Assembly (NCBI GenBank): GCA_964016885.1
Contig: CAXHJY010000930.1
Coordinates: forward strand, 1 to 25,797
Origin: Eledone cirrhosa
Lineage: Eukaryota
DNA: 25,797 nt
Direction of reading: 5' to 3'
The position numbers and the translations under genes were made by a program. Shown here one piece after another: positions 20,674-25,041 of this stretch (within the stretch, counting starts at the first letter, position 1; every line of letters begins with the position of its first letter). The notes below the pieces were generated by a model. It did not search any database, was not told where the DNA came from, and saw nothing but the letters and a program-made list of their open reading frames with translations.

Positions 20674-22881
20674 TTAATTAGGTTTATAATATTTAAATGT
20701 TTTTTTTAGTTTATGATTACACGATATAATTAATTCCTGTCGTTTATTTAATAAGATATCCTTAGACTTCATTATTTCAAATAGTTCTTGGGAACATAAT
20801 CTACATTCCTTTCTATTATTTTGATAAGGGGTGGCTCTTTTGAGCACACTCCAGGTCAAATCATATTTTATATTCTTATTTTTATAACTATTGATTTTTT
20901 CTGCTAGAGATGTTGTATTAGCCAGTGCGGCATTTTTAAAACTATGTTTGTGGGTATTAAACCTTGTCTTAAAATTGTTAGAGGTAGCTCCTATATATGA
21001 GCAAATAGAATCTTTAGTTTTAACATTACATTTATAGACTATGTTGTTAACAAGACAATTCCCTTTTAATGGGCAGTTTGTTTTGTTTCTACAGTTACAT
21101 CCTTTCGTTAATTCTGTATTTGAGGAGATATTATTGTTAATTTGATGTACTGGTGGTATACTTATGGTTTTCTTACATTTATATGCATTATATGCACTTA
21201 TATTTTGTTTTATGTTATTTGTTGTAGAGTATGAGAATTTAACTGTAGACCTATTTAAGATTTGATGGTATTTGTGGTTTGGCGGGAAGTTTTTCTCAAG
21301 GATATAAAAAAATTTTTTAGCAATATTATCCTTAACTTGTAAATTAAAAGGAGCATTATACCAAGTAACTCGTCTATTACGGTTTCTATGTTGTTTATTA
21401 TTTTTATTATTTTTATAGGTTGTATCATGATTTTTACTAGGAGGATTAATGTTAATGATCTCACCACAACTATTTTTAGTTATATTTGTAGATTTAGGTG
21501 TTTTATCTTTTTTATTAGGAGTTTTATTATTAATATTTATTATAGTTGTATGATGAGTAGTTTTTTGAGGGTTACTATACTTTATATTAGAAGATTTAGT
21601 ATTTTGGGGTATATTGTGGGTGGCATTTAGGTGTGTACTTTTCATTTGGTGTTTGTTGGTAATATTATGCTGTATGCTTTCAGTATTTTTAGTAGAAGGT
21701 ATATACTCTAATCTATTTTTGTGGCCACTTCTATCTAGAGCTTCATTATAAAAGGTCGCATTTTTATCAAATACATCTTGGTTAGAAGAAAGGTTAGAAA
21801 TTCTAAGTGATATATTATATGCAAGGTTTTTAAGGATAGATTTAGGGTGATTAGATTGTGAGTGTATGTAATGTAAGTTTTGGTTAGGTTTATGGTAAGG
21901 TTGGTATATACCCGTAGCTAAATCTAAAGTTATATCTAGGAAATTTACTACTTTACTTGTTTTTTCAAAAGTAATATTAAGATTATAATAGTCTTTAAGG
22001 AAAGTTCTAATATGTTTTTTGTTTTTTTCGATTTCTGAAAGGCTAAGGTTGTTAGAAAGAAGAAGACAGTCATCACGATATAAACCACCTTTGAGGTGGG
22101 GAAAAGAGGCATTTATGTTGAAAAGGAGAAAGAGGCCCACAAGATCAGTAATTTGGGCGGAATCGCTTGAACCCATAGTAATATCAAAAAGATTACTGTA
22201 TGTGTTTCTGGTCCAGTATTCATTCTGAAATTCAATAAGTGTTAGTCTAGCATGTGTAATAATGTTAATGTCATCCGAAGTTAAATTAGATCTATTTTTA
22301 GCAAATATTAATGCTTTGTTCAGGAGTATGGGTGATATAGAAGAATAGTAATTATCTATATCAAATTGTAGGAAAGAAGCAGAAGATTTACACCTAATAT
22401 TTTTAAACCAATTAATTACCTGGGAGGTGTTTTCCCAGAGTGGTAAAATAACGTATTTTCTTATTTGTGGGATGACTCTATCTAAAATTTTTTTGCTAAT
22501 TATTCCAATATCTGATTTGGAGGGACATATAAGTCTAATAGAAGGATTAGAGTTAAAGTTAGATTTGTGATCTTTCAGGTTGAAGTGTGGTCTTTTCAAT
22601 GCCAAAGGTTCAGTTCTATCTTCAATGTTTAGTTTTTTTACTATGTTGTGTGTTTTGTTGTTGATGTTGGTGAGTGACACATTATTAGATTTTTTATAAT
22701 TTTTTCTGAGTTCTTTATATATGAACTCATTATAATGTTCAATATCCATATGATACAAGTTACCAGTTTTGTCCGAGTGGACATGGATTTTTTTAGACTT
22801 TTTTAGGTCCAATAGGGTAGAATCAAGGTCCTTTTGAAAGACGGATTTATACTTTTTAAAAAGTATAAATCCGTCTTTCAA
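20674..22881 (-). CDS. Penelope-like reverse transcriptase / GIY-YIG endonuclease, 5'-truncated (genuine coding ends at about the axis, 22857)
   Basis: Its 735-aa translation is identical to the + copy. Motifs: SDKTGNLY, FLQFDIDNYYSSI, ITMGS, LYRDD, VNFLDITLDL, YHKPN..YIHSQSNHP, WYNAPF, CNCx5Cx5C, IVY..YIG, FKTRFNTH, CRLCSQE, LLNKRQEL. Confidence 0.92.
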   Translation of the reverse strand: MKDGFILFKKYKSVFQKDLDSTLLDLKKSKKIHVHSDKTGNLYHMDIEHYNEFIYKELRKNYKKSNNVSLTNINNKTHNIVKKLNIEDRTEPLALKRPHFNLKDHKSNFNSNPSIRLICPSKSDIGIISKKILDRVIPQIRKYVILPLWENTSQVINWFKNIRCKSSASFLQFDIDNYYSSISPILLNKALIFAKNRSNLTSDDINIITHARLTLIEFQNEYWTRNTYSNLFDITMGSSDSAQITDLVGLFLLFNINASFPHLKGGLYRDDCLLLSNNLSLSEIEKNKKHIRTFLKDYYNLNITFEKTSKVVNFLDITLDLATGIYQPYHKPNQNLHYIHSQSNHPKSILKNLAYNISLRISNLSSNQDVFDKNATFYNEALDRSGHKNRLEYIPSTKNTESIQHNITNKHQMKSTHLNATHNIPQNTKSSNIKYSNPQKTTHHTTIININNKTPNKKDKTPKSTNITKNSCGEIININPPSKNHDTTYKNNKNNKQHRNRNRRVTWYNAPFNLQVKDNIAKKFFYILEKNFPPNHKYHQILNRSTVKFSYSTTNNIKQNISAYNAYKCKKTISIPPVHQINNNISSNTELTKGCNCRNKTNCPLKGNCLVNNIVYKCNVKTKDSICSYIGATSNNFKTRFNTHKHSFKNAALANTTSLAEKINSYKNKNIKYDLTWSVLKRATPYQNNRKECRLCSQELFEIMKSKDILLNKRQELIISCNHKLKKTFKYYKPN

Positions 22882-25041
22882 AAGGACCTTGATTCTACCC
22901 TATTGGACCTAAAAAAGTCTAAAAAAATCCATGTCCACTCGGACAAAACTGGTAACTTGTATCATATGGATATTGAACATTATAATGAGTTCATATATAA
23001 AGAACTCAGAAAAAATTATAAAAAATCTAATAATGTGTCACTCACCAACATCAACAACAAAACACACAACATAGTAAAAAAACTAAACATTGAAGATAGA
23101 ACTGAACCTTTGGCATTGAAAAGACCACACTTCAACCTGAAAGATCACAAATCTAACTTTAACTCTAATCCTTCTATTAGACTTATATGTCCCTCCAAAT
23201 CAGATATTGGAATAATTAGCAAAAAAATTTTAGATAGAGTCATCCCACAAATAAGAAAATACGTTATTTTACCACTCTGGGAAAACACCTCCCAGGTAAT
23301 TAATTGGTTTAAAAATATTAGGTGTAAATCTTCTGCTTCTTTCCTACAATTTGATATAGATAATTACTATTCTTCTATATCACCCATACTCCTGAACAAA
23401 GCATTAATATTTGCTAAAAATAGATCTAATTTAACTTCGGATGACATTAACATTATTACACATGCTAGACTAACACTTATTGAATTTCAGAATGAATACT
23501 GGACCAGAAACACATACAGTAATCTTTTTGATATTACTATGGGTTCAAGCGATTCCGCCCAAATTACTGATCTTGTGGGCCTCTTTCTCCTTTTCAACAT
23601 AAATGCCTCTTTTCCCCACCTCAAAGGTGGTTTATATCGTGATGACTGTCTTCTTCTTTCTAACAACCTTAGCCTTTCAGAAATCGAAAAAAACAAAAAA
23701 CATATTAGAACTTTCCTTAAAGACTATTATAATCTTAATATTACTTTTGAAAAAACAAGTAAAGTAGTAAATTTCCTAGATATAACTTTAGATTTAGCTA
23801 CGGGTATATACCAACCTTACCATAAACCTAACCAAAACTTACATTACATACACTCACAATCTAATCACCCTAAATCTATCCTTAAAAACCTTGCATATAA
23901 TATATCACTTAGAATTTCTAACCTTTCTTCTAACCAAGATGTATTTGATAAAAATGCGACCTTTTATAATGAAGCTCTAGATAGAAGTGGCCACAAAAAT
24001 AGATTAGAGTATATACCTTCTACTAAAAATACTGAAAGCATACAGCATAATATTACCAACAAACACCAAATGAAAAGTACACACCTAAATGCCACCCACA
24101 ATATACCCCAAAATACTAAATCTTCTAATATAAAGTATAGTAACCCTCAAAAAACTACTCATCATACAACTATAATAAATATTAATAATAAAACTCCTAA
24201 TAAAAAAGATAAAACACCTAAATCTACAAATATAACTAAAAATAGTTGTGGTGAGATCATTAACATTAATCCTCCTAGTAAAAATCATGATACAACCTAT
24301 AAAAATAATAAAAATAATAAACAACATAGAAACCGTAATAGACGAGTTACTTGGTATAATGCTCCTTTTAATTTACAAGTTAAGGATAATATTGCTAAAA
24401 AATTTTTTTATATCCTTGAGAAAAACTTCCCGCCAAACCACAAATACCATCAAATCTTAAATAGGTCTACAGTTAAATTCTCATACTCTACAACAAATAA
24501 CATAAAACAAAATATAAGTGCATATAATGCATATAAATGTAAGAAAACCATAAGTATACCACCAGTACATCAAATTAACAATAATATCTCCTCAAATACA
24601 GAATTAACGAAAGGATGTAACTGTAGAAACAAAACAAACTGCCCATTAAAAGGGAATTGTCTTGTTAACAACATAGTCTATAAATGTAATGTTAAAACTA
24701 AAGATTCTATTTGCTCATATATAGGAGCTACCTCTAACAATTTTAAGACAAGGTTTAATACCCACAAACATAGTTTTAAAAATGCCGCACTGGCTAATAC
24801 AACATCTCTAGCAGAAAAAATCAATAGTTATAAAAATAAGAATATAAAATATGATTTGACCTGGAGTGTGCTCAAAAGAGCCACCCCTTATCAAAATAAT
24901 AGAAAGGAATGTAGATTATGTTCCCAAGAACTATTTGAAATAATGAAGTCTAAGGATATCTTATTAAATAAACGACAGGAATTAATTATATCGTGTAATC
25001 ATAAACTAAAAAAAACATTTAAATATTATAAACCTAATTAA
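22834..25041 (+). CDS. Penelope-like reverse transcriptase / GIY-YIG endonuclease, 5'-truncated (genuine coding from about 22858)
   Basis: DKT at 22942, RT motif A at 23341, YRDD at 23635-23646, CxCx5Cx5C at 24616-24660, IVY at 24673, YIG at 24718, KECRLCSQE at 24904-24930. No stops or frameshifts. The nominal TTG start lies in the mirror arm and the first ATG is at 22966. Confidence 0.92.
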   Translation: MKDGFILFKKYKSVFQKDLDSTLLDLKKSKKIHVHSDKTGNLYHMDIEHYNEFIYKELRKNYKKSNNVSLTNINNKTHNIVKKLNIEDRTEPLALKRPHFNLKDHKSNFNSNPSIRLICPSKSDIGIISKKILDRVIPQIRKYVILPLWENTSQVINWFKNIRCKSSASFLQFDIDNYYSSISPILLNKALIFAKNRSNLTSDDINIITHARLTLIEFQNEYWTRNTYSNLFDITMGSSDSAQITDLVGLFLLFNINASFPHLKGGLYRDDCLLLSNNLSLSEIEKNKKHIRTFLKDYYNLNITFEKTSKVVNFLDITLDLATGIYQPYHKPNQNLHYIHSQSNHPKSILKNLAYNISLRISNLSSNQDVFDKNATFYNEALDRSGHKNRLEYIPSTKNTESIQHNITNKHQMKSTHLNATHNIPQNTKSSNIKYSNPQKTTHHTTIININNKTPNKKDKTPKSTNITKNSCGEIININPPSKNHDTTYKNNKNNKQHRNRNRRVTWYNAPFNLQVKDNIAKKFFYILEKNFPPNHKYHQILNRSTVKFSYSTTNNIKQNISAYNAYKCKKTISIPPVHQINNNISSNTELTKGCNCRNKTNCPLKGNCLVNNIVYKCNVKTKDSICSYIGATSNNFKTRFNTHKHSFKNAALANTTSLAEKINSYKNKNIKYDLTWSVLKRATPYQNNRKECRLCSQELFEIMKSKDILLNKRQELIISCNHKLKKTFKYYKPN

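Follow-up and report, generated by a model that had tools for sequence, protein, structure and literature searches.

Positions 1 to 25,797 of contig CAXHJY010000930.1 from the Eledone cirrhosa assembly GCA_964016885.1 (the whole stretch of DNA analyzed, 25,797 nucleotides, hereafter the window) end in a large inverted repeat whose two arms meet head-to-head without a spacer. Judged from its motifs and modelled fold, each arm is a copy of a Penelope-like retroelement (PLE) of the EN+ type, with a telomerase-related reverse transcriptase (RT) and a GIY-YIG endonuclease (EN) encoded in one open reading frame (ORF). The surroundings are (TA)n-rich, eukaryote-like DNA, and N is absent from the whole window. 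The features of the two arms are the following.

19500–20673 (−): AT-rich 3′ tail built from degenerate copies of the ORF end, with two-motif units at 20683, 20410, 19974, and 19721; the outer limit of ~19500 is an estimate
19916–22857 (−): left arm, portion mirrored by the right arm
20050–20215: degenerate TA/CA microsatellite, either part of the tail or the target of insertion; its mirror copy lies at ~25500–25665
20674–22857 (−): 727-codon frame of the left arm, identical to that of the right arm
22834–22854 (+): TTG plus the next six codons, which merely read the partner arm in antisense; counterpart at 22861–22881 (−)
22855–22860: axis core TTT/AAA, a self-complementary hexamer, probably the element's own F-K codons
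22858–25797 (+): right arm, a 5′-truncated PLE running to the last base of the window
22858–25041 (+): open 727-codon RT and GIY-YIG frame, probably without some 85–90 N-terminal residues
22942–22950 (+): DKT motif, the Hydra-clade form of DKG
23635–23646 (+): YRDD catalytic RT motif, residues 260–263, invariant in the 14-row alignment A1
24616–24642 (+): CxCx5C linker, CNCRNKTNC, residues 587–595
24679–25002 (+): C-terminal GIY-YIG-type endonuclease region, with CxxC (685–688) before E691 and CxH (713–715) after N704
25085–25763 (+): zone of all arm differences; relative to the left arm, the right arm has four substitutions, three single-base losses, and one gain

The original prediction had described a perfect symmetry with no loop, and this was confirmed by the sequence of the window. 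The axis lies at 22857/22858 with a spacer of zero, and the arms are exactly identical for 2,227 bp each (20631–25084). Beyond this perfect core, the symmetry reaches further than had been proposed: when gaps are allowed, 22858–25797 aligns with 22857–19916 at 99.73% identity over 2,943 columns, giving a mirrored right arm of 2,940 bp in which the final base of the window, 25797, pairs with 19916. The arms differ at eight sites (four substitutions and four single-base indels), the nearest of which is 2,228 bp from the axis. Among perfect palindromes with a half-length of at least 12 in the window, the others are one TA-rich 36-mer and simple repeats. The end of the mirror is merely the end of the window, which in turn presumably is the end of the contig.

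The same 735-amino acid ORF with a TTG start is found on both strands (22834–25041, +; 20674–22881, −), and its frame stays open across the axis, as had been stated, and for 14 codons upstream of it. The first in-frame ATG (22966) indeed follows the DKT motif, which starts at 22942. The first residues of the ORF had been regarded as antisense of the partner; this holds for TTG and the six codons after it, while the last residue before the axis, an F, is probably native.

Two protein searches returned 57 relatives and, at E ≤1e-30, 466 relatives, the closest being 47–50% identical over the RT region. A metagenome scan using the single protein as query gave no relative among 348 stretches, and the window protein had no significant Pfam match and no PDB sequence match. 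The Pfam GIY-YIG model was matched by one of the 14 members of A1 (E 0.0045). A structure predicted from A1 had a mean predicted local distance difference test score of 73.8, and its ten best Foldseek matches in the PDB were all telomerase RTs (best E 3.0e-9; template modelling scores 0.27–0.36 over the whole query). In the endonuclease region, Y608, Y621, G623, R632, H636, E691, and N704 are invariant in A1, and there is no invariant second His. CxxC occurs once in the protein, as CRLC, with none between Y608 and YIG, and CxH reads CNH. Their arrangement agrees with the catalytic layout of a GIY-YIG endonuclease. An N/K/T-rich linker of ~120 residues, modelled with low confidence (residues 390–510, window ~24025–24387, +), lies between the RT thumb and the endonuclease and is missing from most homologs. 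It recalls the N-rich inserts described in passages of PMC3846280.

The Hydra clade of PLEs is described with DKT in place of DKG, a CxCx5C linker, CxxC and CxH motifs, and a C-terminal EN (PMC8557442, section 11). The arms match this clade, to which they are assigned on motifs: a single ORF combines the RT with a C-terminal GIY-YIG domain apparently lacking the CCHH motif. It contains DKT and CxCx5C, and its conserved E and N are flanked by CxxC and CxH. TA-rich surroundings and 5′ truncation are further likenesses. TA/CA tracts lie at 20050–20215 and below ~19480 and may represent the (TA)n insertion target described for the Hydra clade, depending on where the 3′ end of the element falls. 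The RWK motif of the clade would sit in the missing N-terminal part, and most full-length A1 homologs have RW. In contrast to the clade description of "generally <3 kb" (PMC8557442), the window element is larger, owing to the ~120-residue linker and a long tail built from repeats, and the part present here has no canonical hammerhead core. Naiad elements are similar in being from invertebrates, in their high copy number, and in their (TA)n association and inverted 5′ copies. Membership of that clade was rejected, as Naiads have an N-terminal GIY-YIG and DKA, whereas here the EN is C-terminal and the motif is DKT.

Related copies were taken from metagenomes as 78 loci, drawn from the best 80 of 352 matches and biased towards near full-length, assembled copies. 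In homologs, the distance from a KNIP-like motif to DKT has a median of 105 residues (n = 62), compared with 27 residues from the axis to DKT here. The claimed loss of the true N-terminus is thereby borne out, and about 85–90 N-terminal residues would be missing, counting a few residues ahead of the KNIP-like motif. The hammerhead-bearing 5′ region is probably lost as well. A hammerhead-like core was seen between −400 and +60 in 31 of the 54 related loci with a located ORF start, nearly always at −165 to −276, which is the zone lost here. The exact core CTGANGA is absent from both strands of 19451–22857, and Rfam gave no hammerhead, either in the window or in 14 of the 78 relatives. The matches that it did give at the axis were dismissed as look-alikes of microRNA hairpins, far below gathering scores. 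A possible decayed hammerhead core was observed in the fourth tail unit (20284–20309, −; mirrored at ~25405–25430, +), with one mismatch per conserved box when judged by eye against the cores of the relatives. With the N-terminus and the 5′ region missing, the truncated copy is inferred to be non-autonomous.

The fold point was compared with an alignment of 153 homolog rows, made up of those sequences in which 45 or more residues precede DK(T/S), namely 66 of the 78 loci and 87 of 204 proteins; these rows are related and not independent. Position −1 relative to the axis is F in 126 of the 153 rows (by plain offset count, 41 of 66 loci and 53 of 87 proteins), and TTT serves as F codon in 20 of 28 cases in the ORF. 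Therefore, the sequence at the axis was probably TTT AAA (F-K) natively, as had been suggested. At position −2, 131 of the 153 rows have K, E, or Q; the L given by the mirror is atypical and not among the five commonest residues. The native self-complementary core probably comprises those six bases only. Matches of G and F at −5/−4 were disregarded, as the alignment was pulled to an upstream GFKS motif. Centers of 6-bp palindromes are found at 68 of 2,637 arm positions (2.6%). None of the loose ends displayed for public sequencing runs, from a table with 402 further rows, lies at the axis, and the native sequence upstream of it was not recovered among them. In the original prediction, the hexamer primed an intramolecular snap-back of the complementary DNA (cDNA). 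This was not upheld, as a DNA strand ending 3 or 5 bases beyond the axis folds no terminal hairpin; a hairpin loop requires 4–6 unpaired bases according to a passage of PMC7999016. Since the hexamer cannot form a hairpin alone and two identical ends can pair loop-free, annealing of two cDNA ends would explain the zero spacer better than snap-back.

Downstream of the ORF, the tail repeats pieces of ~137 or 270 bp from the ORF end (19500–20690, −), and the copy at 19712–19744 still reads FKYYKPN-stop. The spacings of the tail units (273, 436, and 253) are consistent with one array interrupted by a microsatellite of ~163 bp. Two-motif units, with motifs defined from the tail sequences themselves, were not found on either strand of 1–19300, and the unit at 19974 lies inside the mirrored part. 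Deep coverage by public reads and contigs persists over 20215–20304. Shuffle tests gave a mixed picture: none of 200 shuffles scored as high for 19520–19915 against the tail, 34 of 200 did for 19916–20050 against the tail, and 3 of 200 did for the two segments against each other. The tail probably extends to ~19500, in which case the right arm would end near 26200, beyond the window. Alternatively, the tail-like units may be remnants of a related, older element next to the target. An argument that the mirror copies host flank (135 bp past the microsatellite) and must be an artefact was weakened, as tail-like units continue beyond the microsatellite.

Parts of the stretch are contained in 17 listed public runs, six of which hold at least half of its words. 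No RNA run was listed among them, which is uninformative about expression. Four runs, probably from individuals other than the source, were compared in detail over 20215–22887. Run X1 holds 1,894 contigs, with 536 at ≥99% identity, 597 at 95–99%, 652 at 90–95%, and 109 below 90%, a spread that indicates many diverged family copies. As 5′ truncation would predict, the summed family depth drops towards the 5′ end, where the last three bins have values of 13,364, 7,970, and 1,475. Runs X4 and X6, with species labels other than that of X1, contain the same family, including several contigs at ≥99%; close relatives, mixed samples, or horizontal spread may explain this. ORF sites at which at least 80% of the letters in X1 differ from the window (15 of 27, from 40 of 348 rows) divided into six synonymous and nine non-synonymous ones, with 20% synonymous expected at random. 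Private mutations common to both arms had been considered as dating the mirror after insertion, but they are uninformative, as a divergent source copy explains them equally.

Self-matches among the 78 loci are inverted in 14 and direct in 56; the direct terminal repeats in these 56 may in some cases be assembly overlaps. Two loci (L023, 98%; L042, 96%) carry an inverted fragment of the endonuclease region upstream of the ORF, as does L071 at 81%. Three of the 78 loci end in a pattern given by a (TA)n run. Imperfect palindromes (75–78%) were observed upstream of the ORF in relatives (L021:386–512, L059:711–904, and L003:56–133), and L025 and L016 each contain two diverged Hydra-type elements in opposite orientation (convergent in L025), suggesting clustered insertion.

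The statement in the original prediction that the palindrome is either very recent or artefactual stands. We give an even chance to a genuine insertion whose joint was made by the element itself, and recently; this weight and those of the alternatives below are our judgement. The endonuclease would nick AT-rich target DNA, and reverse transcription from the 3′ end of the element would halt early at the native TTTAAA, where the self-complementary cDNA end could prime a copy of itself. The more likely route would be loop-free annealing with the identical end of a second cDNA, whose synthesis had been primed on the opposite strand of the target, and the less likely one an RT-assisted snap-back of a single cDNA. 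Each arm would then reach the 3′ end of the element, predicted near 19500 and 26200. In support, the axis lies in an element class known for head-to-head geometry and on a hexamer that is probably native. The mirrored DNA remains element-like, and a frame open over 727 codons befits a young copy. The inverted endonuclease-region fragments of L023, L042, and, at lower identity, L071 also count in its favor. Both strands of a target are nicked and extended by a purified Penelope-like protein (PMC11167929). Passages of PMC3846280 report abundant head-to-head inverted Penelope structures with junction palindromes and propose self-priming on an antisense template; the relevant part of PMC8557442 describes such copies of PLEs likewise, and inverted pLTRs are mentioned in PMC8969392. 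Passages of the preprint 10.64898/2026.07.22.740005 hold nothing further on junctions. No title or abstract was found that describes multi-kb spacerless Penelope palindromes, a search that older papers on Drosophila virilis may fall outside. The inverted insertions of Adineta vaga and other PLEs, as presented in the consulted parts of PMC3846280 and in the legend to Fig. 2 of PMC8557442, share with the window the head-to-head arrangement, a 5′-truncated inverted copy at the 5′ end, a junction palindrome, and trouble for assemblers. They differ in having pLTRs of ~180–220 bp, overlaps or palindromes of 15–38 bp, and visible target-site duplications, whereas the arms here are at least 2.9 kb long, both break off at one and the same base of the ORF, and no flank can be seen.

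Several observations weigh against a joint made by the element, and most of them fit a technical fold-back of a long read or an amplified molecule inside a young high-copy repeat, used by the assembler to end the contig. We regard this as a serious possibility, though short of an even chance. It could arise from a complement strand that follows on, a missed adapter, a hairpin-closed fragment end, or template switching during amplification. The mirror reaches exactly the last base of the window, which leaves no right flank, tail extension, or target-site duplication to be seen. All eight differences fall in the outer 713 bp of the right arm (p 1.2e-5 if evenly spread; p 2.0e-4 with six events, the cluster at 25221–25233 being taken once), half of them are single-base indels, and the net loss is two bases; the parts of PMC9054137 on Nanopore inverted-duplication reads report a second half of lower quality in which bases are skipped. 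Three right-arm indels within the compared stretch are missing from the indel table of the family; the errors are therefore probably on the right arm, with thin and noisy support. In all four runs compared, no strand-change joint is listed at the axis, which indicates that members of the family do not carry the joint as a fixed feature; among 6,050 raw reads in run X19, no more than 9 pass either end of the stretch. None of the 78 loci starts with a terminal palindrome, although this set, if assembled from short reads as we assume, could not contain long ones, and the natural inverted junctions in L023 and L042 lack symmetry. According to a passage of PMC7999016, no palindromes are less stable than long ones without a spacer; a literature search on how unstable long palindromes are in the germline yielded nothing of use. 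Fold-backs are reported in ~0.55–0.6% of genomic reads from Oxford Nanopore Technologies (ONT), some of them spacerless (excerpt of PMC12870357), and palindromes in 40–50% of whole-genome-amplified Arabidopsis PacBio reads against 0.5% in an unamplified control (excerpt of PMC6218980). As these three sources depict them, fold-back artefacts resemble the window in having little or no spacer, a poorer second arm, and no new sequence at the end; typical ONT cases differ in folding near the midpoint, often with ragged edges, whereas the junction here is base-perfect and on a probably native hexamer. Self-complementary hexamers are centered at 2.6% of positions, and a turn at random would seldom strike a native one within the only class of elements with known head-to-head copies. 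In addition, the 2,227 bp adjoining the axis are base-perfect, and at no point does the mirror clearly pass out of the element. Errors far from the axis would arise wherever support thins out at the end of a contig, and according to a passage of PMC9054137 they are likewise to be expected in genuine inverted duplications. The text consulted in PMC12870357 describes such artefacts as virtually absent from HiFi data, which would count against a fold-back if the window sequence came from that platform.

A host origin, in which a break or a fork switches template at TTTAAA in an existing copy and the inverted duplication extends into flanking DNA, appears improbable. In its favor, the mirror takes in the microsatellite and ~135 bp beyond it; this segment (19916–20050) is by itself not significantly tail-like (34 of 200 shuffles), which also counts against an element-made joint, as it may be host flank. 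The TA-satellite in the same window has two orientation switches, and, as reported in part of PMC7999016, large palindromic duplications in yeast mutants can be seeded by inverted repeats as short as 5–9 bp. The same text gives the yeast seeds spacers of 3–12 bp, however, and the segment past the microsatellite bears a tail-like unit. Palindromic products of host repair are generally unstable and unlikely to become fixed in the germline.

Elsewhere in the window, 13400–16700 is a 3.3-kb (TA)n array with TAAG punctuation, in which two internal segments of opposite orientation (~13850–14150 and ~15920–16170) represent inversions within the satellite. Short ORFs at 12851–13222 (+) and 8877–9320 (−) resemble C-terminal pieces of LINE-type RT proteins.

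Both an element-made joint and a technical fold-back would be events of known kinds; only the model of two annealing cDNAs, if shown across many copies, would be new. In its full form, a real spacerless palindrome of ~6.7 kb arising by two-ended target-primed reverse transcription, with nicking and extension of both target strands and two cDNAs annealing on a self-complementary hexamer inside the ORF, we consider it unlikely. Otherwise, the window is a reminder that contig-terminal mirrors produce false paired ORFs. How the inverted structures of Penelope form is listed as an open question in section 15 of PMC8557442. If long reads confirm the joint and many copies likewise have a symmetric joint on a native self-complementary hexamer, junction counts could separate annealing of two cDNAs from snap-back or antisense self-priming. 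If the model is true, symmetric head-to-head junctions across the family would sit on native 6-mer palindromes. Such junctions would record in the genome how Penelope transposition accomplishes its still unresolved second-strand step, and the family would keep supplying an animal genome with multi-kb palindromes.

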